A DNA stretch of 64,000 nucleotides from a virus. The notes beneath the pieces were generated by a model. It saw nothing but the letters and a program-made list of their open reading frames with translations, searched no databases and was not told the origin of the DNA. A program made the translations under genes and the position numbers. This document shows, one piece after another, positions 1,445-30,312 of the stretch. The DNA is taken from positions 1-64,000 of IMG/VR virus record IMGVR_UViG_3300035670_000014, one strand, 5' to 3'. Each line of letters opens with the position of its first letter. Position 1 is the first letter of the stretch.

Positions 1445-3820
1445 ATGGCTTATCCGAACATTGCAGGAACTACAGTAAATCTTACTGATGGTAACCTAAG
1501 AGAAGTTAATAACACAAATGAGCCTGGCGTACTAGTTATCGGTCGGGCCCAAACTGGACCTACATCCAGTATCGTTTCAGTTGCATCTATTCAAGACGGT
1601 GCAAGTATATACGGAAAGCAAAGCGATCTGTTTAAAGGAATAGTTGAGGCATCTCAAGGTGGTGCTCTTAACTTGCTAGGCTATCGGTTAGCTGGAGTTG
1701 CGCCTGTTCTAACAAATGTAGGTTCAGAAGCTGCTGAAGTATCAGGTGGTATAGAAGGAACTGGCTTCACTATAGCTCCTGCATTGGAATCAGCGGAAGC
1801 TGCTTCTATATATGCAGTTGCTTATCAGTCTTCAGTAAATAGAAACCCTGATGGGAATAATGCTGATGAAGGAGCTGCTGTTAATGAACTTATGGTTCTT
1901 AACACTCAGACCGGTAAAGTAGTCTATCACGGAACTGCAACTCAGACATTTCTTGACCTTGGAGAAGTGACTGTTTCCAGTGATGTATTTAATAATACTG
2001 ATACAAGTGTAGACGTTGTTACTGTTACATTCACGGTAAACGCAGGGTTAACTAATCAAACTTTAAGCTTTGTTATAAGTGGTAAAGTTGTTAGTTTTCC
2101 AATACTTGCAACAGATACTGCCGCTGGGATAGCAACTAAATTTGTAACTGCTTTTAATGCCACCGATCTTGATGTTGTATTTACTGCTGGTGCATCTGGT
2201 GCAATTGTAACTATTACTGCTGATAAAGCAGTATCTTCTGATGGTGTACTTAGATATCCGACAGGCCACCCTCAAGCAGGTCGTCCTGCTAGACCTGTAG
2301 TGTACTCTGTTCCTGATACTACTAGTAGCCTAGAAATTGCAATTAACAAAACAGATGGGCCTGAAGCATTTGATATTGGATGGCTACCTCTGTATGTTGA
2401 AGATCCGCTATCAACTATTAACGGTGGTGGGTTTGTAGGTCTATCTCAGGTTCCTTTATTTTTCAATACAATGAATGCTATCTACACTCAGATAGGTGGC
2501 GTAGATTTTGCGCCCAAAGCTACTATCTTTACTGCTGGTCAGACAATGGCTTCAACTTCATATATGAAGTTGTATGAGAAACTAGATGAAGCTTACTCTC
2601 TACTTTCATTCAGGTCATTTGACTTTGTCGTCCCTCAGGGAATTAAACTTGATGCAGTAAATGTTGCTGATCTATCCCCAGAGCAGGTAGCTAGCCTTGG
2701 TCTAGATGACCTAGAGGACTATCCTCTAGTTGGCTCACCTTCTGATGTATTGGGTAAATTGGCAAGAGTTCTAAATTCTGATGGATTTACCTATACCTAC
2801 TATTGGGATACTGACAATGACGGTGTAGCTAATATTGCATCAGATGGTGAGCCTGGCGATGCTCCTGATGACCTAGTTTTTTATGAAGTAAACTTTGCTC
2901 ACCAGCTTGCCTTGTTCTGCTATAAGACTAGTGAAGATTTTAACTTCTGCCATGGGTTTGTGGCCACTTCACTTCCCCGAGCACTAGATCCTCGTTCTAT
3001 TAGAACCTGGGCAGGTAGAAGCCCGTCTTCAGTTTATGACGCAAGACTTGAAAGGTATGTTATACCTGCAGCTGGTGATGGAACAGGGCTGCTTGGTCAT
3101 AAGCTTGTAGGTGGTAGTGCTGATTTCCACTTTGGATTCCGTCGACCTGGAATACCGCTTACAATTGATGAAAACTTCGGCACAATGTCAGATGTTGACA
3201 AGCTTGTAGTAGATAGCAATGGTCTAGTGGTTGACATCGGCAAGTACATATCAGTTGTATCTGGGTTTGGTAATCTAAGAAATGAATACAATTCAGTAAG
3301 AGGCGGATATCTAACTAATCTTGCAGCCTGGTATGCTGGTCGAGTATCTGCTTTAGCTCCGGTTAACTCACCCACAAATAAAACAGCCAATAACGTTGGC
3401 ATGATTTATGACATTGATGCCAGAATTGTAGATGAGCTTGCTGGAAACAGAGTTGTTGCTCTCTTTAAGAAGGATGGAGTTCCTACAATTGCAGATGCAC
3501 CTACATTTGCAAATGAAGGATCAGACTACAAGAGACTTACAACAATGCGAATTGTTCACACTGTAGTTAAAGAACTTCGCGCTGCTGCTGATCCCTTCCT
3601 TGGTGAAGGCCTTAGTACTCAAAAGCGTGCTGCTCTAGATACTGCCCTTCAAAGTGTAATACTTCAAAACATGGGTATTAATCTTACAGGTGGTAACTTC
3701 ATAGTGAAACAAACAGCGGCTGAAAGAGTTGAAGGAAGAATGAGATTATATGTATCTCTAGTTCCCATCTTTGAGCTTAGAAAGATTAACGTAGAAATTT
3801 CGCTAAGCGCAGGCGAATAA
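1445..3820 (+). CDS. Tail sheath protein
   Basis: N-terminal VLVIGRAQTGP; C-terminal YAGRVS...SPTNK, DYKRLTTMRIV, LVPIFELRKINVEI typical of sheath; strong RBS AAGGAGG. Confidence 0.92.
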   Translation: MAYPNIAGTTVNLTDGNLREVNNTNEPGVLVIGRAQTGPTSSIVSVASIQDGASIYGKQSDLFKGIVEASQGGALNLLGYRLAGVAPVLTNVGSEAAEVSGGIEGTGFTIAPALESAEAASIYAVAYQSSVNRNPDGNNADEGAAVNELMVLNTQTGKVVYHGTATQTFLDLGEVTVSSDVFNNTDTSVDVVTVTFTVNAGLTNQTLSFVISGKVVSFPILATDTAAGIATKFVTAFNATDLDVVFTAGASGAIVTITADKAVSSDGVLRYPTGHPQAGRPARPVVYSVPDTTSSLEIAINKTDGPEAFDIGWLPLYVEDPLSTINGGGFVGLSQVPLFFNTMNAIYTQIGGVDFAPKATIFTAGQTMASTSYMKLYEKLDEAYSLLSFRSFDFVVPQGIKLDAVNVADLSPEQVASLGLDDLEDYPLVGSPSDVLGKLARVLNSDGFTYTYYWDTDNDGVANIASDGEPGDAPDDLVFYEVNFAHQLALFCYKTSEDFNFCHGFVATSLPRALDPRSIRTWAGRSPSSVYDARLERYVIPAAGDGTGLLGHKLVGGSADFHFGFRRPGIPLTIDENFGTMSDVDKLVVDSNGLVVDIGKYISVVSGFGNLRNEYNSVRGGYLTNLAAWYAGRVSALAPVNSPTNKTANNVGMIYDIDARIVDELAGNRVVALFKKDGVPTIADAPTFANEGSDYKRLTTMRIVHTVVKELRAAADPFLGEGLSTQKRAALDTALQSVILQNMGINLTGGNFIVKQTAAERVEGRMRLYVSLVPIFELRKINVEISLSAGE

Positions 3821-3831
3821 GGAGATAGAAT

Positions 3832-4521
3832 ATGACACTTAGACAGAACGAGTATTTTACTAGGTCTTTTTCCTCCTTTTCTGGAGCGGATATTAAGGTG
3901 GTTTTTGCAGGGATTGAAATTGCAACCCTACAGGCCATCTCATATGCAATCCAAAGAGAAAAGGCACCCATCTATACACTAGGCGATCCTAACCCGAGGG
4001 CCTTCTCAAGAGGCAAGCGTGGCATTGCTGGATCAATGATTTTCATTATGTTTGATACTCACGCACTGCTTGATGCATTTAAGGATGCTGACCGTGAAAA
4101 TCTTGCTAAGTTCGTTACAGATATTAACGAAATTAATCCTATAATGTTTGAAAGCGGAGCTAGAGACCAAGACGTGTCACCTATAGAAGTTGACGGACCT
4201 AGTACTTATTGGAACAGCTATGGTGTAAGTACAGCATTCTATGTTGATCAAATTCCTCCATTTGATGTAACAATACTAGCTGCAAATGAAACTGCAGGTG
4301 GTGCAGTTATGAGAATTTGGTCCGCTGAAATCATGAATGAAGGCTACGGTATTAGCGTTGATGACATGGTTTCAGAAATGCAATGTACCTATGTATGTCG
4401 TATGATTACTAGATGGCGTAGAGCTGGAACTAACGGCGATACATTTGGCTTCCAGGCCAATAGAGTTGGTCCTGGTGTTGAAGTTACAGGTCCAGAGATA
4501 AGTGCAGCAAGTAGAATATAA
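3832..4521 (+). CDS. Major tail tube protein
   Basis: Directly after sheath; FSGADI, LQAISYAIQREKAPIYTLG, RGKRGIAGS, DQIPPFDVTI; RBS AGGAG; followed by a terminator. Confidence 0.85.
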   Translation: MTLRQNEYFTRSFSSFSGADIKVVFAGIEIATLQAISYAIQREKAPIYTLGDPNPRAFSRGKRGIAGSMIFIMFDTHALLDAFKDADRENLAKFVTDINEINPIMFESGARDQDVSPIEVDGPSTYWNSYGVSTAFYVDQIPPFDVTILAANETAGGAVMRIWSAEIMNEGYGISVDDMVSEMQCTYVCRMITRWRRAGTNGDTFGFQANRVGPGVEVTGPEISAASRI

Positions 4522-4635: not shown

Positions 4636-6009
4636 ATGAGTAGACCATTTCAGAATGAATTACAATGGTATGATCAGCCAGAAGAAATAATAAGAAGAAA
4701 TGGTGGATTTTCTGGCTGTGATATTGATTTAGTTGTCAGACTACCAGCAACTTACGATAGAAGGGGAAGGCTTCTTTCTCAGTCTGTAGCATATCAACTT
4801 GGAAGTATACAGACTTTAAGTTATCAATCTTATAACTCCAAAGAAGCAGTAAGGTCTTTGGGTTTTAAAAATGTAAGGGGCTATGCAAGAGGATCAAGAA
4901 CAATAGCTGGCACCTTAATGTTAAATCAGCTATATACACATGTACTTGATGATGTAGGTACTTCAACTATACTAAATGACACAAAAGGTATATTGACTTA
5001 TTCATCTGGTAGTATTGTTTATGTTCGTAATGTCCCCCTTGATCCTAAAATAAGAGAGGTTGTTGGAGAGACTTATGATTCTATTGAGTCTCCTTCTGTA
5101 ATAAATAGAAGGCATAACTTTGACTTTTCCTGGGATCAAAATACAATAGGAAGACAACTTAAATCTTCTGACTTGCCACCATTTGATATTATTGCCATAT
5201 TTGTGAATGAATATGGACATGTGGGTAAGATGGTTATTTATGGAGTTGATTTAGTTACTGAAGGCGGAGTACTCAGTATAGAGGATATTTATACTGAAGT
5301 TAGCATGCAGTATGTAGCTAGAGATATTGAATACTTTCATAGTGAAACTCAGGCTGGCACAAGTCAATGGAGAGGTGTGAGTCCCTTTGGAGGTGGCGGT
5401 AATAGAAACACAGAGCTATCATTTGTTATGGATTCAATGGGTGATGCAAGTGATAGGGTCTGGAGGTCAGTTTATGGAGGTGGAGATGCAGCAGGAGCTG
5501 AGTCACTTTTACGAGTTGAAGAAGGAATAAGGGCTAACAGGCAAGGGTTTGAAGGAAATAGTGTCCTTGGGACTAGTCAACCTACACTAGTTGATATTTC
5601 TGGAGTTATTGGATCTGCACAGACACAGGTAGGAAATAGCTTGGATCGATCACTATATGTTACACAAACAGTAGATGTATTTAATAATACAAACACATTA
5701 ACCAGGGAAGATGACGGATTAAATCTTACAAATCTTGATAGAATAAGATCTTTGATTACAGGTACAAGTTACCTAGATAATATTGAAACTATTATTGGAG
5801 ATACTCTTAGATTTACTACTATTAGGATACTGTATGATGAATTAGAATTAGAAAGAAGTAGGCGAATTAGTTATGAGAATGGTGGTTTCTCGTCAGAGAA
5901 TTCACTTTCTAGATCCACTACACCATTACCTTTGGATACTATAGATTTTATAATTAGATACTTAATAGATGTTGATTATTTAAATACAATTGGTGGAAGT
6001 GGAGGGTAA
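4636..6009 (+). CDS. Tail tube paralogue (tube initiator-like) with C-terminal extension
   Basis: FSGCDI, IQTLSY, RGSRTIAGTL, DLPPFDII, QYVARDI align by eye with the 3832 tube. Confidence 0.75.
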   Translation: MSRPFQNELQWYDQPEEIIRRNGGFSGCDIDLVVRLPATYDRRGRLLSQSVAYQLGSIQTLSYQSYNSKEAVRSLGFKNVRGYARGSRTIAGTLMLNQLYTHVLDDVGTSTILNDTKGILTYSSGSIVYVRNVPLDPKIREVVGETYDSIESPSVINRRHNFDFSWDQNTIGRQLKSSDLPPFDIIAIFVNEYGHVGKMVIYGVDLVTEGGVLSIEDIYTEVSMQYVARDIEYFHSETQAGTSQWRGVSPFGGGGNRNTELSFVMDSMGDASDRVWRSVYGGGDAAGAESLLRVEEGIRANRQGFEGNSVLGTSQPTLVDISGVIGSAQTQVGNSLDRSLYVTQTVDVFNNTNTLTREDDGLNLTNLDRIRSLITGTSYLDNIETIIGDTLRFTTIRILYDELELERSRRISYENGGFSSENSLSRSTTPLPLDTIDFIIRYLIDVDYLNTIGGSGG

Positions 6010-11600: not shown

Positions 11601-13449
11601 GCTTCCAGAATCTATGAGGTATGGAAATCCCTATACTTCACTAGCACATGGAGGAGCTGAATATAGAATGCCAGGTGAAGGCTATGCCTCTCTGAATCCT
11701 GAAATGAAAGGAGTAGACCCAGAAAACTACTCTACTGCTCATAGGTTCAAGATACTAGGTAATATAGCTCCTTGGTCAAATGAATACAGAGACACAAGAG
11801 ATCAAATAGAATCTGAAATATCAAGAGGTATGATCTCAAAAGAAGGTTATAGAGATTACTATAATACTCTTCAAGATATTAAAGATAGGCAAAAGAAGCT
11901 TGCTTTTAATCCTTACCTTTATGATCCTAGTAATTATGACAGCATCATAGGTAGGGTAAAAAACTTAGATGCTGACAATCTTGCATTTGAACTAGAAGGT
12001 GTAACTGGAAAGTTTACACTGGCAGGTGTAACTAATAATGCTGGTGACTTGGTTGGTCAGCTTAACCTTGAAATACATGAAGCTGCAAAAGTCAGAAAGC
12101 AGAATGCTTCCGAGTTTCAGAAGCTAATTGAAAAAGGTGAGTTTGTAAAAGTAACAATGCCTAAGTCAATTGGCCATGCGGTTAATGAAAGGGGCCATAT
12201 AATGGCGGCTGTAAGTAAACCTCTTACTCAGCTTAGTTATAATGCAGCCTTAGCGAGAAATGCCAATGTAGCAACTGAAGATTCAGTTATTGGTCAATAT
12301 GCAATGGGAGGTTTTGCAGGGAAGACTGCAGGTAGGGCGTATCAGGCATTTACTCATACTGCTACATCTTTAACTGCACCAGTAGAATTCATATCTAAGT
12401 TCGGCTTTTCTCCAGGCATGAAGCTTATGCCTGAAAGAACAGCAAGAGAAGAGTATGAACAGTTTAACCTGTACGGTACAAGAGTTAGACTTTGGCAAAA
12501 TCCTTTGACTCACTGGTTTGGTTCTTCAGCTAAGTCGTTCGCACATAATGTAGTTGGTTTAGACTTTGTAAGCCCTGGTGTACAGAAGCAAAGAGATGTA
12601 GAAGAATACTTTGATAAAGCTAAATATGTAAAGTACAAGAGTGCAGAAAGAGCAGCCAATGCAGCAGGCAATGATGAAATGGCTATTGCTTATAAGTCAA
12701 TGGCGAGAGACACAATGATAGGGGGCTCTGGGTTTGTAGGAGATACAAGATTTAGAAACTTGATGAAAGGAAATGAAGGAGCCTATGCTTTAGGCATGGC
12801 GGCAGAAATAAACCCTTATGAGCAAAATAAAATCCTGTCTGTCCTACCAGAACATAAAAGAAGAATAATGGCTGGCAAGTATGGCCAGCAAGACCAGGCA
12901 GCAATTAATAGAATGCTACAGGCTTCACCAATAAGTGAAGCTGGTATGGACTATTTAGATAAGCTAAATAATCTACAGAGATCAGATGGCTACCTAATGG
13001 AAACCTCTTCAGTCGAAGCATACAATATGCAGAAGCAGGAAAATGAAGAGTACTCTGATTTTAGAAGAAGAAAAGAACTAGAAGAATACTATAGAAAGAA
13101 TAATAGGCCCAAAGCAGACTGGGCAGGTTTTAATCCGAATGTAGACCTTGAAGATGTCAAGTTAAGGTACTTACAGAACGAAGGTTTGGATTATCATAAC
13201 TTCTCGATCTTTGAATCTAGAAACGAATATCTCCATAGGAAGCCCTACATAACAAGCCATGACATTACTCAAGTAGGTATAGGCTATACGAACCTTAACA
13301 TGGCAATTAACAGTTTAAATCAAGTAAGACAAATGATGGCAGCTCCCGTAAGCGGAACTACATTTGTTGGTAACTCTGAATCAAGAAGTAGTAACTTTAT
13401 ACAGTTAACACTAGAGCAAGACCGATTCTATAGAATGGAAGGAATGTAA
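8608..13449 (+). CDS. Tape-measure-like / ejection protein with membrane segments and degenerate SNase-like domain
   Basis: 1613 aa after the chaperones; several Gly/Ala-rich hydrophobic stretches; SNase-like pattern at about 11944-12275. Confidence 0.6.
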   Translation: MIQDPVTGQTVPFSFGFDAPAEKVSFGRVQSQFVPDEGESGEINPTAERAMSLGVGAAVLYYGAPRALDEFVKFSKIKSLEDYDLPGEQAIDKIRRTSGSSANKALDAMLGPEPQGFDPADLQDPAKRLSAINAFKAQKKYSAEVMFNLKKAELEERLRLEPFKSTAEDSIGRKAFEFARRVETFNAAGDFLSPIFRIFAKALGAGNILSYYSKTGEQATTAFNVSASQVGSDVRGAWRTFLESDIFNASLPGEATDTIEARKARLSKAFEQADYLVVKGGNLYRGRAVVRDRKKVIEAINEDPLLKGVNLISGTGKERVGILTEIDSSFGDRLGPTRRIRGELIGASEGFLFLPKNIQGPFTDPRLNQSLFLAKGWMSSSLQRTAGLMEELATEGKNFLKDTVGYLTTNKNTGKVSAIARAFGILPDFHLKTSAGMLGTYMGFAMKTYAGLAIANQSQFWQQNGGFLGWMAGGAINTGIGAYIGSKLATALKVDSGRGRLIGAAIGATSFIPGSPFNDGVIGGGARIFGGINRLRSTIGEATLMNSWRRTLEKIAPGSTDFTSAMFFGLAGSLALTAGYRKFSGKTFISKSDRIAYLKAFDFDKIEDLVDPRLGETLDQPGGNLKVAQDLRRTLPFQQMDAGKKEKIFQEIKTYVEDARQDPARWVKLQNDFAMVEDTYSAKSISLAEMLEEQSYEKARAKLQNPKLGLAKRIETMALELPLARGVIYGAIAMTAIYAGLTGQLGTKETPTEIGQYNRGEKLEVVRRAQNWEGGSEAYEGAEPLYHRPTFIARLISGTMSSGSSNRGMVEEFLLKNFTYELERESYYTKPAPITSAAFDTLPMVYLAIKPLADLIKRPKLMHEEMWHQDGQYLEISEGLDPLPNMGMGGEGMAAPVSPYSYSRVISKVVNQAQAFAGIRGFYTKEATKFIGGFTGIADQRKELESYSENVDMTSRFYDLHTGGGFMGVPFVSEIIRRFMVKNNAGTYNPIPNELPSWLPESMRYGNPYTSLAHGGAEYRMPGEGYASLNPEMKGVDPENYSTAHRFKILGNIAPWSNEYRDTRDQIESEISRGMISKEGYRDYYNTLQDIKDRQKKLAFNPYLYDPSNYDSIIGRVKNLDADNLAFELEGVTGKFTLAGVTNNAGDLVGQLNLEIHEAAKVRKQNASEFQKLIEKGEFVKVTMPKSIGHAVNERGHIMAAVSKPLTQLSYNAALARNANVATEDSVIGQYAMGGFAGKTAGRAYQAFTHTATSLTAPVEFISKFGFSPGMKLMPERTAREEYEQFNLYGTRVRLWQNPLTHWFGSSAKSFAHNVVGLDFVSPGVQKQRDVEEYFDKAKYVKYKSAERAANAAGNDEMAIAYKSMARDTMIGGSGFVGDTRFRNLMKGNEGAYALGMAAEINPYEQNKILSVLPEHKRRIMAGKYGQQDQAAINRMLQASPISEAGMDYLDKLNNLQRSDGYLMETSSVEAYNMQKQENEEYSDFRRRKELEEYYRKNNRPKADWAGFNPNVDLEDVKLRYLQNEGLDYHNFSIFESRNEYLHRKPYITSHDITQVGIGYTNLNMAINSLNQVRQMMAAPVSGTTFVGNSESRSSNFIQLTLEQDRFYRMEGM

Positions 13450-16400
13450 TGGAACGTAGATTTGAATTCCAGGATTTGGCTGCACTTGGTGCCATTGGTG
13501 TAGGTCTTGCCGTAGGTATAAGAAGTGCCAAGAGCGCAGGCGTTACCACAGATGATATAGTTAGAGCTTACTCTAATGTAACACCAATTAGAGATGCGAC
13601 TCCAATTCCAGTTCTGCAAAAAACTCAAATGAGCCAGCAGAATGTTCTAAGTAGAATTGCAAATGCTGTCGAAATAAGAGAAAAGTTTAATGCTCAAAAA
13701 GTAGACAGAATTATAAGTGGAATGGCAACTGCACCTCTTAGTGCAAATGAGTTAAATGCAGCAAAATTTGGATTACTAGAGTACGCTACGAGTCCTCAAG
13801 TTGATCCTCAACTTAGAAGTCAGCTACTAGGAGGTCAAGATATTGGGACCTTTGCAACTGATATATTCAACATGAATGAGCCTCAAGTTAGAGCAGAGGT
13901 AACTAGGGCATCAAGTATTAGTGCATTAAAAGAGCAGAAAAGAAATCTTAAAAATATCATTGGAAACAAGTCAAGGTCTGCTTCAAGATTTAAAAATAAT
14001 CTTGCCACTGTAGCTAGGGTATTTGATGTTAAAGAAGCTAGAGCAAAAGTAAAAAATCCAACAAATCCATCAAAAAGAGTATTTAATTCAATGACATCAA
14101 ACATGTCATATAGTGCAGTATTGAATAAAAATGTAAGAAGGTATCCATTAAAAGATAAAATAAATGTTTTAGGAACTGACTTTAGTAGAACCTTTGATTT
14201 TAAAGGTGGAGCTGAAGGCCCATGGAAGCAAGTAGAAAATGCACTAGAAGGGTTAAATTTAAAAAATAGCATAAACAACAAAGTAAGAGATGAAGTAGTA
14301 GAAAAGTTTAGAAAAACTCAAGACTATCTAACTCAATTAGAAGGTAAAGGAATCATCCCTAATAGAAGTAATCTAAGTATTACGGTTATGGGAATGAAGG
14401 GGATGGATAGTCCTGCTATTTATTTGAATGTTCCATTTGGCGATTCAATGGACCAAGCAAGAGGTAGAGTTGGTTTTCAGATTCCTTTAAATAGACCTAA
14501 TTATATAAGCCAAAGAGGAACCTCAACCCCTGTTTATTTTTCTACAGCAGAACCTAGAAATCCCGTTGCATTAAATGCAATGACAATGAGAGCGGGCTCT
14601 ATTAATGAGATAGGAGAAATACAAGGTGGTAATAGATTATTAAATACTATTGATGCTGTATTCTTTGGAGGGGCAGATAATGTTGATGTAAAAAATATAC
14701 CTTTCTATGAATCAATAATAACCTCTAAAAAATCACTACTTCCGATAGATAATAGTGATCCAATTTTAAATGAAGCAGCAGCGAGACAGAAAGGAGTCGG
14801 AGTAGAAGATGTTACAGGTAGACTGAAAGAAGGTAATATATTTACCGTCAATCCCTTAGACTCACTATTTGGAACAGGAGATGATAAAGCTAAATATGGC
14901 CAGTCAGTTATTGGATCAATTGATGATGCAGCTAAATCTCAGTTAATGGTTCAAAGAGGAAGAATGATTGGAATAAGTGGATTATCTGAACTTCTAGATA
15001 CTTCACAATTTACATCTAAAGATATATTTGATGATATACACCGTCAACTGAATAATACTATTTCTAGCTATGGGGGTAGATACTCAATCTTGAGAGTTAA
15101 TGCTTCAAGTGTTTCCCCTGGTCAGGTAGGTATAGAAAGAGGAGGGATAAGTGCTGTTTCATTTAACTTAACCAATCCTGAGGCGGTAGGTCTTACTCAG
15201 GATCAGTTAAAAGAAGTTGTTGAAGGTAGAGGCGGAAGATTAGGTAAGCTGGCTGATTTAAATCAAGCTGAAAGAGAAGACCTTGCTAAAAGTCTTGGAG
15301 TTGGAACAGAGGAGCTAGAAGATATCGCCAGAGCAGAAGGAGGAGGAGTAGGCAGAGCAAGCAAACTTGTTAGGTTAAAAATAGCTAAAATGGGAGAGGG
15401 TGCAGCAACTATACTTGATGAGTATACACACTTTGGTCTTTTAGAGGGAACAGCTGATCCTACTGGATTTAATCAAGGAAGAAGACCATCCCAGCCTCTA
15501 GTTGATGTATTTGAACCAACTCAATCATCACTAAATGAGATGAGTGAAAGTCGCTACAGTTTAACTGATGAAACAGGGAATAAGTATACTTTATTTTCTC
15601 CCTTGGAAGAGATAGGAGTATCAAGGTCAGAAATGCCCTCAGATGTAAGAAAGACAAGAATAAATAGGAGATATTTATTCATGCATCCAGAAGCAGAGAG
15701 AGACATCACTGGTGGAGTGGTTTCAAGAGCTAAATCAAGCTTTCAAGAAGGTATAAGTGTTGCTGTCACCGATAAAGTTAATCCTGAGTTTTATGGGCAA
15801 TCTGTAAAATCAAGAGTTTTTCTAGGAGAAAGTAAAACTATATTAAGCGAAAGAATGGAGAAATTAACATCAGCACTACTCTCACTGTCAGAAGATGACA
15901 GGAAAGATAGTACGATTAGAAAAGAAACAATCAGAAAAGCTCTATTTGAAGGAGATCTTGGAAATCTAAAAGCTCCTAGACCTATCTTTGAAAGGGGAGA
16001 GTTTCTAGGTCTTAAGATGGATGCTAGAAGTGGTTTAGATTTATCTGGAGTAGATTTTGGTGGAATGCCTGAGTATGCACTAGAAGATGCATATATAGAT
16101 GGTAATACATTAGACTTAGAATTTAAGCCAATTATAAGATCACAACAAGCATCTAAAGTTATGCTCTCAAGTAAGACAACTCAGGTAGCTATGGGGTCTG
16201 ATGAGTTAGCAGATGTATTAAGACTAGGACAAGAAGATGAAGATATATCAAGATTACTTAGCCGCAGGCGTATAGATGCAGTTGCTGATGCTACTGAAAT
16301 TGCAAGAAAAGGAAACTTAAATGCAATTAGATCACAGCAGCTTAGCGGGCTTATGGAAGTAATGACAGATTTATTTGAAGCAAGTCAGTCCGCAACATTA

Positions 16401-19400
16401 ACACCAAAAGGGATTGAAGCATCAGGTAGATTTGGTAATTTTATTAGAGGCGTAAAGGGGTCCATAGATGCACTAAATAATGCAATGACAGGAACCTCAA
16501 AAGGTCAAAATGTTTATAACTATAAGTTTTCAAGATTTAATGAAAATGTTAATAAAGCAAAAGAAATATTAGAAACAAGAAAGGCTAATTTTGGTCAAGA
16601 TAAAACCCTGCGTCCAGTTGCTGAAGCTTTAGATGAGATGCTTAATAGTCCAAGATCAACATCGGCCTTGTTAGATATAATAGGAATCTTTGGAGCAGCA
16701 ACAGGCAGAGGTAAGAACGTACTTGATGAAGATGTATTTGGAATATTTGGACTAGAAAAAGTTAAGGCAAAAGGTGGTTCTCTAATAGCAGGTCTAGAAT
16801 CAGTCCAATCAAAAGGAAAGTACCATGCAGGAATACTTGGTGTAATGGCAGATAAGGAAGCTAGAGATTTAACATTAGATGTTTTAGGTGAGCTGACAAA
16901 AGATGAAAAAGGAAATAGCCTTTTTCAAGCAGGGTTTTTAGATGAAACATTAGAAAGAATTGGTATCGGATTACAAAATACAGATGTAAATGAGTTCTTT
17001 ATTAGAGGACAAGCTGCTACTACTTTCAGAACGACAGCAGGTATATTTGAAGCTAATCAGGTTTCAATAGAAAGAAGGGCAATTCATTCATTACTGAATG
17101 TAAATCAATTTGTATCAGAAGATGGCAGGATCAACTTTAGAGATCTCTTTGTTGAAGACTTAGTTACTCAGATACAAGGACCTTCAAGAGAAGAAGCAAT
17201 TCTTGCAGGATCTTTACTTGGAAACAATGGGCTGCTTGATTTAGCAAGAGGCAATGAGCCAATCGAAGTTCTCACTAGCACTACTGAACTAGGAGATCAG
17301 GGAAGAAATGTGACATTACCATTCCTGCAGGGACATGTTAAGAGTCCAATTTTATACATGCCTTCTACAGAAGAAAGAGAAATACTACAAAGGAATATCT
17401 TAATTGGAGATAAGACACTTGATAAATCTTACTCTGGAAAAATAGATGAAATAAAAGCAATACTAGGAGGTATGTCACCTGAAGACATGAGTTCATTTGA
17501 TCCTAAGAGTATACATGGGCAGCAGTTAATAAATGCATTTAATGAAGCAAAAGTCATTGGGTTCTCTACTGCAACTGATATTAATGAGAGATTCTTTTCC
17601 GGTGCCATAATTGGAAGTATCTATACACTAGAACAATCAGGACATAAACACTTTGACGACAATCTCAAAGTAGCAGATAACATAATGCTTAAATCCTCAA
17701 CCAAAGGTGGGGGATTAGTGACTGCAGTAAACAAAAGAGAAGCTCAAAGATTACTAGAAGGAGTCAAGAGAGTTGCCAGTAAAGAAGTAGCAGCTCAAAT
17801 ACAAAAAGAACTATTTGAAGACATGACTCCTGTTTTGCAAATAAGCACAAGATTTCCAACTATTACTGGTACACCTAGAATAGCAGGATTAGTTCAATAT
17901 GATCCTGACTTAGATTTTGAAGTTAATGAAAGAGGTAACTTTTATAGAAGTGAAGTAGACGGAAAAGTAAACTATATAGAAGTTGATAATTTTGATAACT
18001 CAATAGAAGTCAATAAAGATAAAGAAGGGAAATTAATAAAGTACAGAGAAGTAGATACAGAAGTAAGAAGGGGCGGCGTAGCAATAGCCGAAGTAACAGA
18101 AGGTGGCAGTAAAAAAGAAGTAATTATAGACTCCTATCTTCTGTCTGGTACTACATCAGACCGTGACGGTGATCAAGCTCTAAGGAATCTATATATAGGT
18201 GGGAATAGACAAGAAATACAAGATTTCCTTATGTCAGAAGATGGGAGAAGGCAAATGTTTGCTTACATTTACAAGCAAACAGAAATGCAAAAACAGTATG
18301 AAGATATGGTAAAGTCTAGTCCTAGGATGCAAAGCTTTGAAGCTGCAGCCAAAGGAACGGGTGAAGTGTTAGATGATTCAGTAAGGGCACTATCTCAACA
18401 TGCAGGACAGGCAGAAATTGGCAAAGTTTCATCTGCTATTACTCAGTTAAAGTTACTATCTGCTTATAGTAAAGAAGCGGCAGTTCAAAGCCTGGGAAGC
18501 GATACAGTAAAAATAAATGCAATAGAAGAATCCTTTGAAAGGTTTATGGGTTTCCTTCAGGGACTGGAGCAGGTTCCTATTTCATTCAAGCACTCTGCTG
18601 CTGGTGAAACTCCCGCTGCAGCATTAACAAATCAGATAATGAACATATTTAGCAATACCGATCAGGTAGAAGCAGAAAAGGCAATGCAAGAATTCCTAAC
18701 TGGATGGATGGGTGGAGATAAAGATCAAGTTGGAAAGATAACATCAGAGTGGATGGATAACTTTATGCGAACGGCTGTAAGTTACTCAGTTGCAAGTGAT
18801 GAAATAAGAAATGCAATAAGTCTATCTACAAAGCATAGTGAAGATATTGCAAAGATGAGTCCTGAGGATTTCCAGCAAAGATACAAAATGGCAATGAATG
18901 TAAGAGGAATGAGTGTAGTAACAGCGACCCATGCTCATGCTGAGCTTGCAGCTGCTGTTCAAGCTGCCTCATTAAAGGGAAATGAGCAGATAGCTGCCTT
19001 AAATAATAGCCTTATAGAAAGAGCAGCTGAAGCTAAAATGAACAGTAAAATAAGCGGAAGCGTAGCGGAGCAAGCAAGAAGTGCAGTGTTAAATGAAAAA
19101 GGTAAAGCTTTTTCAAAGATTGCTAAGCCAGTTGGAGCTGGCCTTGCAGCTGCAGGCTTAATATATGCAATGTTTGACCAAGGCCATTCAGCAGATAACC
19201 TTGAAGAGCCAGAAGGTGGAAAAGGCCTTAAGCCTCCAGCTGGGATTAGAATGAACAATCCACAAAGAGATACTAATCTTAATGTTCCCTATGAAGATAG
19301 AGAGATGAGCTATGCACCGAATACAATAGATAGGAGAACAGTTGGTAGTTCAAATACAGGAAGAGTCAATTCCCGAGCCCAAATATCTCAGAATGTTAAT

Positions 19401-19508
19401 GCACTAGAAGTAGCAAGAGCAATGCAGACAACAATACCTCATGCTCAAATTGGTGTTAACCTTCAATATTCTAATAAAATGAATCCAAGACTAGAGCAGG
19501 ATTTGTAA
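13449..19508 (+). CDS. Putative virion-associated single-chain two-barrel (DPBB) RNA polymerase in tape-measure locus
   Basis: SDRDGDQ (D1571/D1573/D1575) preceded by RFP (R1468); K903/K909 pair; later IG and EQVPISFKH; hydrophobic segments at both ends. Confidence 0.72.
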   Translation: MERRFEFQDLAALGAIGVGLAVGIRSAKSAGVTTDDIVRAYSNVTPIRDATPIPVLQKTQMSQQNVLSRIANAVEIREKFNAQKVDRIISGMATAPLSANELNAAKFGLLEYATSPQVDPQLRSQLLGGQDIGTFATDIFNMNEPQVRAEVTRASSISALKEQKRNLKNIIGNKSRSASRFKNNLATVARVFDVKEARAKVKNPTNPSKRVFNSMTSNMSYSAVLNKNVRRYPLKDKINVLGTDFSRTFDFKGGAEGPWKQVENALEGLNLKNSINNKVRDEVVEKFRKTQDYLTQLEGKGIIPNRSNLSITVMGMKGMDSPAIYLNVPFGDSMDQARGRVGFQIPLNRPNYISQRGTSTPVYFSTAEPRNPVALNAMTMRAGSINEIGEIQGGNRLLNTIDAVFFGGADNVDVKNIPFYESIITSKKSLLPIDNSDPILNEAAARQKGVGVEDVTGRLKEGNIFTVNPLDSLFGTGDDKAKYGQSVIGSIDDAAKSQLMVQRGRMIGISGLSELLDTSQFTSKDIFDDIHRQLNNTISSYGGRYSILRVNASSVSPGQVGIERGGISAVSFNLTNPEAVGLTQDQLKEVVEGRGGRLGKLADLNQAEREDLAKSLGVGTEELEDIARAEGGGVGRASKLVRLKIAKMGEGAATILDEYTHFGLLEGTADPTGFNQGRRPSQPLVDVFEPTQSSLNEMSESRYSLTDETGNKYTLFSPLEEIGVSRSEMPSDVRKTRINRRYLFMHPEAERDITGGVVSRAKSSFQEGISVAVTDKVNPEFYGQSVKSRVFLGESKTILSERMEKLTSALLSLSEDDRKDSTIRKETIRKALFEGDLGNLKAPRPIFERGEFLGLKMDARSGLDLSGVDFGGMPEYALEDAYIDGNTLDLEFKPIIRSQQASKVMLSSKTTQVAMGSDELADVLRLGQEDEDISRLLSRRRIDAVADATEIARKGNLNAIRSQQLSGLMEVMTDLFEASQSATLTPKGIEASGRFGNFIRGVKGSIDALNNAMTGTSKGQNVYNYKFSRFNENVNKAKEILETRKANFGQDKTLRPVAEALDEMLNSPRSTSALLDIIGIFGAATGRGKNVLDEDVFGIFGLEKVKAKGGSLIAGLESVQSKGKYHAGILGVMADKEARDLTLDVLGELTKDEKGNSLFQAGFLDETLERIGIGLQNTDVNEFFIRGQAATTFRTTAGIFEANQVSIERRAIHSLLNVNQFVSEDGRINFRDLFVEDLVTQIQGPSREEAILAGSLLGNNGLLDLARGNEPIEVLTSTTELGDQGRNVTLPFLQGHVKSPILYMPSTEEREILQRNILIGDKTLDKSYSGKIDEIKAILGGMSPEDMSSFDPKSIHGQQLINAFNEAKVIGFSTATDINERFFSGAIIGSIYTLEQSGHKHFDDNLKVADNIMLKSSTKGGGLVTAVNKREAQRLLEGVKRVASKEVAAQIQKELFEDMTPVLQISTRFPTITGTPRIAGLVQYDPDLDFEVNERGNFYRSEVDGKVNYIEVDNFDNSIEVNKDKEGKLIKYREVDTEVRRGGVAIAEVTEGGSKKEVIIDSYLLSGTTSDRDGDQALRNLYIGGNRQEIQDFLMSEDGRRQMFAYIYKQTEMQKQYEDMVKSSPRMQSFEAAAKGTGEVLDDSVRALSQHAGQAEIGKVSSAITQLKLLSAYSKEAAVQSLGSDTVKINAIEESFERFMGFLQGLEQVPISFKHSAAGETPAAALTNQIMNIFSNTDQVEAEKAMQEFLTGWMGGDKDQVGKITSEWMDNFMRTAVSYSVASDEIRNAISLSTKHSEDIAKMSPEDFQQRYKMAMNVRGMSVVTATHAHAELAAAVQAASLKGNEQIAALNNSLIERAAEAKMNSKISGSVAEQARSAVLNEKGKAFSKIAKPVGAGLAAAGLIYAMFDQGHSADNLEEPEGGKGLKPPAGIRMNNPQRDTNLNVPYEDREMSYAPNTIDRRTVGSSNTGRVNSRAQISQNVNALEVARAMQTTIPHAQIGVNLQYSNKMNPRLEQDL

Positions 19509-28688: not shown

Positions 28689-29131
28689 TGATTGACCTAA
28701 AGGTCACAAGGGAATATGATCTAGTAATAGATCCTATAAACTCTACAGAGTATGCTATTAGCAGGACGATGCCTAATACTGCAGAATATGTAAGTCAAGC
28801 TTTAGATCTCTGTATTAGGTCCATGCCAGGAGAGTGGAAGTTAAATAGGTTCTTTGGTGCAAGTCCTGTTGCAATGTTAGGATCTCCCATGAGAGATTCA
28901 CTATTTGGCTATTTAGAATCTTATGTTTCAGAAGCGCTTAAAAACTCAAGAGTAATACCAGTTAGTGCAACTGTAAGTGTAAAGTCTGCTCCAATAGACT
29001 TCGATAAGATTGTAATGAGAATTACCTTTTATGAAGGTAGTTCAAATAGGCCCGCTATGATTTTTGATTATATGTACTCTACTGAGCAAAATGCAATCTA
29101 TCCACTTGAAATTGGATATGGAGAAAGATAA
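28688..29131 (+). CDS. Baseplate wedge / sheath initiator (gp25-like)
   Basis: 147 aa; MIDLK...DL, QALDLCIRSMPGEWKLNRFFG; precedes baseplate J. Confidence 0.8.
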   Translation: MIDLKVTREYDLVIDPINSTEYAISRTMPNTAEYVSQALDLCIRSMPGEWKLNRFFGASPVAMLGSPMRDSLFGYLESYVSEALKNSRVIPVSATVSVKSAPIDFDKIVMRITFYEGSSNRPAMIFDYMYSTEQNAIYPLEIGYGER

Positions 29132-30312
29132 TGGCAAGTACGTATCAGCAAGTAAAAAATACATTAATTGAAAATGTAGCTAAAAGAGGAGTGGGAAATT
29201 ACATGGGAGAAGGCTCTGTCTTGGCAGAGTACTTATCATCGTTTTCACTAGAAGTTTCCTCTATTACTCAAAGCATCCTTAACGCCAATTCAAATCTTAA
29301 TATATCAACAGCCAGAGGGTTAGCACTTGACAGAATAGGCCAAGACTTACAGGAGCCTAGGCTTGGGGCAACCCAAGCTCAGTTTAGAGCTAGTGATAGA
29401 GTAGTTAGAATAGAAACATTTAATGGTAATTCATTTGCTCAAAATGGTATAGAATCATTTTCTCCAGGATTGAGATTATTCTCAACTGGAGGAATAGAGT
29501 TTGTGGTTACTGATATATCTCCTTTTGATAGTGCAGCAAACTCAGTATTTGTAGGAGCCAGGGCAGTTAAGTTTGGTTCTTCTGGAAATCTTGTTAAGAA
29601 TTCTTTAGAGAGACATTCCTCTATTGCTTATAGAGATGTTTTAAGAGTTAATCAAATTCATTCTATCTATAATGGAATAAATCAAGAAACAGATGACTCC
29701 TATATTTCAAGGCTTGAAAATTCTTTTCTTGCAAGAAGAATAGGATCTTCAATGGCGGTAGAAGCAGCAATAAAAAGAATACCTGGAATACAAAAGCTTT
29801 CAATAATAAACCAGTCTAGTGGACTGGGTACTATCTTAGCAGTAGTTCAGCCTGCAGTTGGATACTATGTATACCCAAGCTCTATAAATGAAATATATAG
29901 AAACTTAAGTAATTTAATGGAATTAGGCTCAAGGGTTCAAATACAAAATCCAAAACTATATCAAGCAACAATAAAAACAATAATAAAAACAGATGTAGCC
30001 TTGAATGCAACTCAAAAAATACAGCTGAAGATAAAGATTGAGAAAGCTTTACTTGCCTTAATGAACCAAATGCAAATCGGCCAATCATTGAGTCTATATG
30101 CTATTGCTAGTGCTATTAAATCAGAAGACTCCAGAATAACAAGCTTCGGAAATGGCGGGGAATATATTGACTCGGTAGTTATAACATATAGAGATGGGGA
30201 CTATGAATTTAGCGAAACATACTCTGGAGCTATTAATCCAGTAGTAACTATTCCCTCTGATTCGCTGCTGATTCCAAGTGAAACAACTCCTTTTGAGATA
30301 CAGATTGTATGA
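29131..30312 (+). CDS. Baseplate J-like (gp6) wedge protein
   Basis: TARGLALDRIG, ARAVKFGSSGN, GINQETDDSYISRL motifs. Confidence 0.88.
   Translation: MASTYQQVKNTLIENVAKRGVGNYMGEGSVLAEYLSSFSLEVSSITQSILNANSNLNISTARGLALDRIGQDLQEPRLGATQAQFRASDRVVRIETFNGNSFAQNGIESFSPGLRLFSTGGIEFVVTDISPFDSAANSVFVGARAVKFGSSGNLVKNSLERHSSIAYRDVLRVNQIHSIYNGINQETDDSYISRLENSFLARRIGSSMAVEAAIKRIPGIQKLSIINQSSGLGTILAVVQPAVGYYVYPSSINEIYRNLSNLMELGSRVQIQNPKLYQATIKTIIKTDVALNATQKIQLKIKIEKALLALMNQMQIGQSLSLYAIASAIKSEDSRITSFGNGGEYIDSVVITYRDGDYEFSETYSGAINPVVTIPSDSLLIPSETTPFEIQIV

Follow-up and report, generated by a model that had tools for sequence, protein, structure and literature searches.

A highly diverged candidate for a two-barrel virion RNA polymerase, encoded in the tape-measure slot of a contractile-tailed phage

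Results

The middle giant gene of a contractile-tail module

The stretch of viral DNA analysed here (the window) covers the initial 64 kb of IMG/VR record IMGVR_UViG_3300035670_000014, a complete viral record of 170,948 bp with direct terminal repeats. It carries a contractile-tail module with three giant genes, and the middle one, P0001, is our subject: an open reading frame (ORF) whose start and stop overlap its neighbors in TAATG, and which we consider a candidate single-chain two-barrel virion RNA polymerase (RNAP). The original prediction, a reading of the letters of the window, had proposed such an enzyme here, and the coordinates and residues on which it was built agree with ours (Table 1). 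Nucleotides 18159-18173 read GACCGTGACGGTGAT and encode DRDGD (D1571/D1573/D1575), the SDRDGDQ stretch beginning at residue 1570. A single D.DGD is unremarkable by itself, 0.035 being expected per 2019 amino acids (aa) of the composition of P0001; the count is one in the 24,608 ORF residues of the window. The remaining motifs are likewise in place, namely FQEG (765), ASKVMLSSK (901), RIDAVAD (941), RKGN (953), FFSGAIIGS (1382), STRFPT (1466), EIGKVSS (1656), and LEQVPISFKH (1706), and the hydrophobic helices noticed at both ends of the protein correspond to its two most hydrophobic 17-residue stretches. The observation is confirmed, and the interpretation partly supported.

Table 1. Features of P0001 and of the surrounding tail module (nucleotide positions in the window; residue numbers are those of the protein named or, within P0001, of P0001).
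Feature	Position	Strand	Remarks
Tail sheath gene	1445-3820	+	PHROG 16991, 6e-56; tblastn to ME3 and 0305phi8-36 sheaths; marks the contractile-tail module
First giant, P0010, 1613 aa	8608-13449	+	ME3 gp035 (blastp 6.6e-19), 0305phi8-36 gp145 (9e-10)
Middle giant, P0001, 2019 aa	13449-19508	+	Open frame; candidate single-chain two-barrel virion RNA polymerase, tape-measure slot
N-terminal Gly/Ala-rich hydrophobic segment, aa 10-26	13476-13526	+	Most hydrophobic 17-aa stretch of P0001
Candidate beta-like second barrel, aa 847-965	15987-16343	+	D858, D880, K903 invariant; K909; R953..N956
ERRA motif, aa 1208-1211	17070-17081	+	Invariant; present in P0001-4 and P0007-9; ~360 aa before the triad
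R1468-F-P1470 of TRFPTIT, candidate beta-prime-like R-x-P	17850-17858	+	Proline invariant; hhalign MAC onto NRAPTLH
Clade-specific insertion of ~60 aa, aa ~1489-1548	17913-18092	+	Not in P0007, P0008, P0009
Candidate Mg-binding catalytic loop, D1571-R-D1573-G-D1575	18159-18173	+	Three Asp invariant, 8 sequences
GQAEIG motif, aa 1653-1658	18405-18422	+	Q, E, I invariant; helical region past the catalytic loop
ISFKH motif, aa 1711-1715	18579-18593	+	F and K invariant
C-terminal hydrophobic segment, aa 1891-1907	19119-19169	+	Second most hydrophobic 17-aa stretch; in all relatives
Conserved C-terminal tail, aa ~1956-2019	19314-19505	+	Ends ..Q-[IV]-G-[VI]-..P-R-x-L-..; 8 sequences
Third giant, P0011, 2798 aa	19508-27904	+	Baseplate hub / cell-wall hydrolase type; PHROG 20474, 1.5e-49
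Baseplate wedge gene	29131-30312	+	PHROG 6, 2.6e-20; closes the tape-measure slot

Conservation of the acidic loop and its surroundings

Relatives of P0001 were sought among ≈15 billion proteins, and the resulting alignment holds eight sequences, down to 21% identity. Three close homologues share 65-75% identity. An exhaustive profile search, which covered 1.84 billion cluster representatives and reached five clusters only, added no more than four proteins, all matching from about residue 1560 on. Scans of viral and metagenome contigs yielded C-terminal fragments only, a word-index search around the distant relative P0009 added no relatives, and tblastn of P0001, P0009, and a second distant relative, P0007, against 50,697 phage records found nothing.

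In the central part of the alignment only 15 of ≈1000 columns are invariant, and D1571, D1573, and D1575 are three of them. The positions between the aspartates differ among the relatives (R/D/F/K/H/A), the residue that follows the motif is variable too, and the glycine is kept in 7/8 sequences; the variants are SDRDGDQ, SDDDGDE/L, TDFDGDN, ADKDGDY, SHDHDGDH, SSDFDGDR, and, in P0007, SADADADE. A DxDxDG calcium loop was considered for the motif and rejected, because the glycine stands before the last aspartate and the sixth residue is variable. Upstream of the loop, the motif R-[SF]-P-[TA]-I-[TS] is found in 7/8 sequences, as QRSPTIT in both P0008 and P0009. The distance from R-x-P to DxDGD is 55-61 aa in P0008/P0009 versus 103 aa in the P0001 clade, the latter because of the variable insertion of ≈60 aa; an insertion is what the original prediction had said its spacing of about 100 aa would need. 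A second invariant arginine, at R1540/1541, is an alternative to R1468, since the local alignment with P0001 as first sequence pairs NRAP with a different stretch.

Past the triad, the invariant polar residues are Q1654, E1656, K1668, Q1708, K1714, and W1753, in the pattern GQxEI..S......K, then Q....FK....G, then W. To judge from the alignment, this conservation exceeds what we would expect of a plain ruler protein. On the other side of the triad, the block at aa 847-965 is conserved across six full-length relatives, with K909 replaced by arginine in P0007, and is, by eye only, a candidate for the second (beta-like) barrel. Toward the ends of the protein, a counterpart of the N-terminal hydrophobic segment is retained in the distant relatives P0007 and P0009, and the C-terminal tail is also kept in two further metagenome fragments.

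Comparison with the catalytic barrels of RNA polymerases

The likeness to the beta-prime subunit was assessed with a profile of its catalytic barrel made from 22 sequences, taken from bacteria and from ten phage and virus enzymes of diverse kinds. The best local hhalign match of the P0001 family lies on the NADFDGD loop of this profile, extends over 43 columns, and has a P of 0.001-0.003 and a probability of 22%. Only in a permissive alignment, by the maximum accuracy (MAC) algorithm, does QRSPTITERG also come to lie on NRAPTLHRLG, and 26 residues are then inserted between that stretch and the loop. Among 15 windows along P0001 and as many reversed decoys, high scores are confined to the two windows holding the triad (27 vs. 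≤21), and 30 column-shuffled decoys that keep the motif score 19-30 (maximum 30.2, median ≈21) against 30.9 for the native family. No decoy (0/30) attains the score of the native family, so that the flanks contribute a genuine, if modest, beta-prime signal.

The two arrangements are alike in having a hydrophobic strand, R-x-P-T-[IL], and then h-x-h-x-P/x-h-h-x-A-x-N/S-x-D-x-D-G-D (NRAPTLH ... NADFDGDQ in beta-prime), but differ in the distance from R-x-P to the triad, which is 35 aa in beta-prime and 55-103 aa in the P0001 family. The beta-prime likeness that had been claimed is supported in that the loop is the best hhalign match and R-x-P-T-I-T recurs in 7/8 sequences, but it is qualified by a score that comes mostly from the motif columns. 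In addition, aa 849-868 matched the switch-2-like beta-prime stretch 'LLGKRVDYSGRSVI' with a P of 0.028, which is not significant after 15 windows tested and was set aside.

For the superfamily as a whole we used the set of eight invariant residues that Ruprich-Robert and Thuriaux defined (PMC2919709) and which, mapped by eye, would correspond to D880 or D858, K903, K909, R1468, P1470, D1571, D1573, and D1575. YonO of SPbeta, QDE-1, and gp66 of the crAss-like phage phi14:2 are single-chain two-barrel RNAPs (PMC5467207, PMC2919709, PMC10770324), and in P0001, too, both barrels would sit on one chain. P0001 is unlike YonO and QDE-1 in that it has no hidden Markov model (HMM) or profile match to PF05183, the eukaryotic-type RNA-dependent RNA polymerase (RdRP)/YonO family, in hmmscan to an E-value of 1, the sole link being a language-model look-alike at 0.77. 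Neither does P0001 match RNA_pol_Rpb1_2 in Pfam, nor, in Pfam and PHROG, the tape-measure families (PF10145, PF06791, and others).

The tail module and its cultured relatives

The sheath of the window is distantly related to the sheaths of Acinetobacter phage ME3 and Bacillus phage 0305phi8-36, and together with the tube-like genes and the baseplate wedge it bears out the contractile-tail context of the original prediction. The adjacent genes at 3832-4521 and 4636-6009 (+) both have a match to PHROG 9206 ('major head protein'); because of their position and the 0305phi8-36 annotation we take them for the tail tube and a tube paralogue, so that this label seems misplaced here.

The three-giant layout recurs on the contigs of P0007 and P0009, the following small genes of the P0009 contig being near-equal in size, and also in ME3 and 0305phi8-36. 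The middle giants of these two cultured phages, ME3 gp036 and 0305phi8-36 gp146, resemble P0001 in their place, which follows the genes for sheath, tube, and chaperones and precedes that for the hub. By mass spectrometry, gp145 of 0305phi8-36, the counterpart of the first giant, is a virion protein (record annotation), and the record of gp146 describes it as a hypothetical tape measure likewise identified in virions. Because of the shared layout, the homologous flanking giants, and the annotation of gp146, "tape-measure slot" is a fair description of where P0001 lies, and its association with the virion may reasonably be inferred from gene position only. The middle giants themselves have no detectable similarity, as judged by blastp, and for ME3 gp036 by hhalign of the P0001 family too.

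As the positional counterpart of P0001 in ME3, gp036 (locus L099:28143-32954 (+), 1603 aa, annotated as hypothetical) contains ..SREPAQGT.. and ..MMGGDHDQDQ.. ≈45 aa apart and hydrophobic segments near both ends. Its hhalign comparisons with the beta-prime profile and the P0001 family are not significant, and homologues of it were not found in the phage collection.

Of the flanking giants, P0010 has a long Gly-rich, membrane-like stretch at about aa 430-560, and could either act as the actual length ruler or serve in ejection by inserting into the membrane. P0011 matches ME3 gp037 (blastp 4e-19), annotated as a peptidase/baseplate hub homologue. It has an M23-like peptidase signature at aa 670-701 (a weak Pfam match), a PHROG 20474 'endolysin' region at aa 2374-2563, and, close to its C-terminus, a Gly/Ala-rich stretch of high hydrophobicity; the P0011 homologue adjoining P0009 has a weak CHAP match instead.

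A second candidate polymerase and GAA-triloop hairpins

Outside the window, the genome encodes a further giant, P0005 (2365 aa; genome 135,126-142,223 (-), locus L002:1127-8224 (-)), with F[YF]RNPST followed 44 aa on by QDG[AG]DLDD, a YonO/RdRP-like arrangement with a non-canonical triad. Both motifs are kept in three homologues at 51% identity, and the C-terminus carries DUF4326 (3.8e-24) and NADAR of the polyvalent-protein type, with a weak ART-PolyVal match. Against the beta-prime profile P0005 aligns collinearly, though not significantly, and hhalign of the P0001 family against the P0005 family gives nothing significant. P0005 is a candidate for a second (non-virion or polyvalent) RNA polymerase. 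Rpb1 and Rpb2 domains are not detectable by Pfam across the genome.

The genome is also rich in hairpins with a GAA triloop. With stems of at least 6 bp, the plus strand has 32 of them, compared with no more than 11 for any other triloop, and with stems of at least 5 bp the strands hold 41 versus 9. They cluster on the plus strand in the leftward gene block, at ≈88-146 kb, and are densest at 128-135 kb, where they have GC-rich stems and common flanks (..tat before the stem and tg.ag.. after it). Two lie in the window, at 12102 and 43054, and one at genome 142269, 46 nt upstream of the start of P0005. Where the leftward and rightward gene blocks diverge, three identical copies of AATGAGACA[GAA]TGTCTCATT, followed by ccccatgaaaaaaga, lie at genome 145475, 145786, and 146215 (+). 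The hairpins are unlike intrinsic terminators, since no U-tracts follow them on the RNA strand.

The virion RNA polymerase of phage N4, a T7-like right-hand enzyme carried in a podovirus head, is injected and begins early transcription, and its promoters are DNA hairpins whose stems are short and whose loops have 3 nt. The GAA-triloop hairpins described above recall these, and may be DNA-hairpin promoters, although the N4 system differs in its enzyme and its virion from a candidate two-barrel protein in a contractile-tail module (the N4 virion RNA polymerase is reference 78 in PMC7824862). P0005, the hairpins, and the genome without Pfam-detectable Rpb1/Rpb2 domains fit a phage that has its own transcription system and would need an injected polymerase.

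Discussion

We favor, with moderate confidence, the view that P0001, the protein of the tape-measure slot, is a very diverged single-chain two-barrel virion RNA polymerase and represents a new family. It is the best reading of the data because of the invariant DxDGD, the upstream R-x-P-T, the modestly beta-prime-like flanks, the enzyme-like conservation, and the tape-measure position. What the data show directly is the ORF, the invariant triad, the local beta-prime likeness, the gene position, and the synteny; that P0001 folds and acts as a polymerase, is packaged and ejected, and chooses its promoters as outlined below is our inference.

In proposed function its nearest counterpart is found in Thermus phage P23-45, whose gp96 is a tape-measure-fused virion two-barrel RNAP (PMC10770324); the precedent invoked by the original prediction is real. 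Like P0001, gp96 is a giant protein of the tape-measure slot that bears a DxDxD signature and hardly resembles other RNAPs in sequence. Its delivery through the tail is what we propose for P0001, and the second, non-virion two-barrel RNAP of P23-45 parallels the candidate P0005. The differences are that the tail of P23-45 is long and non-contractile and the polymerase occupies the N-terminus of a 5002-aa protein, whereas P0001 belongs to a contractile tail, has its putative core in the center (≈aa 850-1800 of 2019), and is flanked by two giants. On the best reading P0001 would work like gp96, yet it is no sequence relative of it.

Several results weigh against a polymerase. P0001, alone or as a family profile, has no sequence match in Pfam, PHROG, or the PDB, and hhalign of the family against residues 1-1200 of gp96 gives a probability of 0.4 with a match off the motif. 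The motif by itself supplies about two thirds of the beta-prime score, and when its five columns are masked the beta-prime match is gone. For the candidate beta-like barrel, hhalign against E. coli beta or a 10-sequence beta profile gives P >0.2 everywhere, so that K903/K909 and RKGN, offered by the original prediction as beta motifs, find no support there. As for invariance, the three aspartates hold in all eight sequences and K903 in the six full-length relatives, but P0007 has DADAD and is without the R-x-P arginine, of which motif it keeps the proline. The slot need not hold such a motif at all, since gp146 of 0305phi8-36 is without any DxDxD.

Structure prediction gave models of low confidence only, on which no double-psi beta-barrels could be demonstrated. 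AlphaFold2, given the eight-sequence alignment, reached a mean predicted local distance difference test (pLDDT) score of 49.9 for aa 835-1835 of P0001 and 46.3 for the barrel crop of P0009, with beta regions below 50; both models are mostly helical, the GQAEIG region being in the better-pLDDT helical part. Foldseek and VIA-align with the low-confidence P0001 model found generic helical matches only, which say nothing about the fold. In the ESM Atlas the nearest named cluster is RdRP (PF05183) for the P0001 crop and tape-measure families for the P0009 crop, both at 0.77, and these look-alikes, being at chance level and contradictory, were set aside. The suggested likeness of the helices downstream of the loop to those of YonO and RdRPs has no backing beyond the chance-level RdRP cluster.

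The main rival is that P0001 is a tape-measure or ejection protein and nothing more: a long and mostly helical ruler that doubles as a conduit, with a conserved acidic loop for holding a structural metal or a partner in the tail, and with no polymerase activity. We regard this as a serious but clearly less probable explanation. It would account for the position shared with gp146, the helical models, the terminal hydrophobic segments, which are typical of tape measures, the tape-measure clusters nearest to the P0009 crop (at chance level), the dependence of the beta-prime score on the motif, and the fact that no HMM detects polymerase families in P0001. Tape measures, however, do not as a rule keep invariant polar or acidic residues at 21% identity, and down to that level the P0001 family retains the triad as well as R-x-P-T, QAEIG, and ISFKH. 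Nor is D-x-D-G-D with a variable sixth residue like a D-x-D-x-D-G calcium loop, the native flanks outscore 30/30 motif-keeping decoys, and there is another candidate ruler in the first giant, P0010.

It is unlikely that P0001 is some other two-barrel nucleotide polymerase delivered with the DNA, such as an RNA-dependent, primer-making, or PolD-like enzyme, rather than a promoter-dependent transcriptase. The aspartate triad and the barrels are indeed common to RdRPs such as QDE-1 and to archaeal PolD (PMC10770324, PMC2919709), and the cluster named for the P0001 crop is an RdRP at chance level, but the virion-delivered two-barrel enzymes known so far from phages are transcriptases (PMC10770324). 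Least probable, and very unlikely, is an unpackaged RNA polymerase merely encoded among tail genes and acting late: the polymerase-like P0005 with its DUF4326 and NADAR could be the injected enzyme instead, but P0001 overlaps at start and stop with flanking virion-protein genes, is encoded in every relative with genes of tail chaperone type on one side and the hub on the other, and has conserved hydrophobic termini that suit a protein of the tail lumen.

If P0001 is a virion polymerase, it would be made late, its translation probably coupled to that of both flanking giant tail proteins, and the conserved hydrophobic segments at its two termini would probably retain it in the lumen of the tail. 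Sheath contraction would expel it into the cell, where the central core (≈aa 850-1800) would refold, with D1571/D1573/D1575 binding the catalytic Mg, and P0001 would transcribe the first phage genes without the host polymerase. The GAA-triloop hairpins before many leftward genes, that of P0005 included, are a possible target, in which case P0001 and then P0005 would form a two-polymerase cascade as in P23-45. For comparison, 0305phi8-36 has a YonO-like enzyme encoded elsewhere in its genome (PMC7824862). The full picture, a family of virion RNAPs that serve as, or ride on, a contractile tape measure, are threaded through the tube, use N4-like GAA-hairpin promoters, and set off a host-independent cascade through a YonO-like, NADAR/DUF4326-fused P0005 in a 171-kb lineage tail-related to 0305phi8-36 and ME3, is speculative, and we would be somewhat surprised to see all of it hold.

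Should the polymerase reading be correct, tail-delivered two-barrel RNAPs would not be peculiar to Thermus siphoviruses, but would occur in contractile-tailed phages too, in a family of about nine public sequences that annotation pipelines have missed (no Pfam, PHROG, or PDB match). A polymerase core of ≈1000 residues would have to pass through a contractile tail tube, which poses a mechanical question, and the family would add a new minimal scaffold to the evolution of the cellular RNAP active site. The synteny with the cultured phages ME3 and 0305phi8-36 makes the idea testable at the bench. For the phages themselves, it would explain how transcription starts in such large genomes without host-type promoters.

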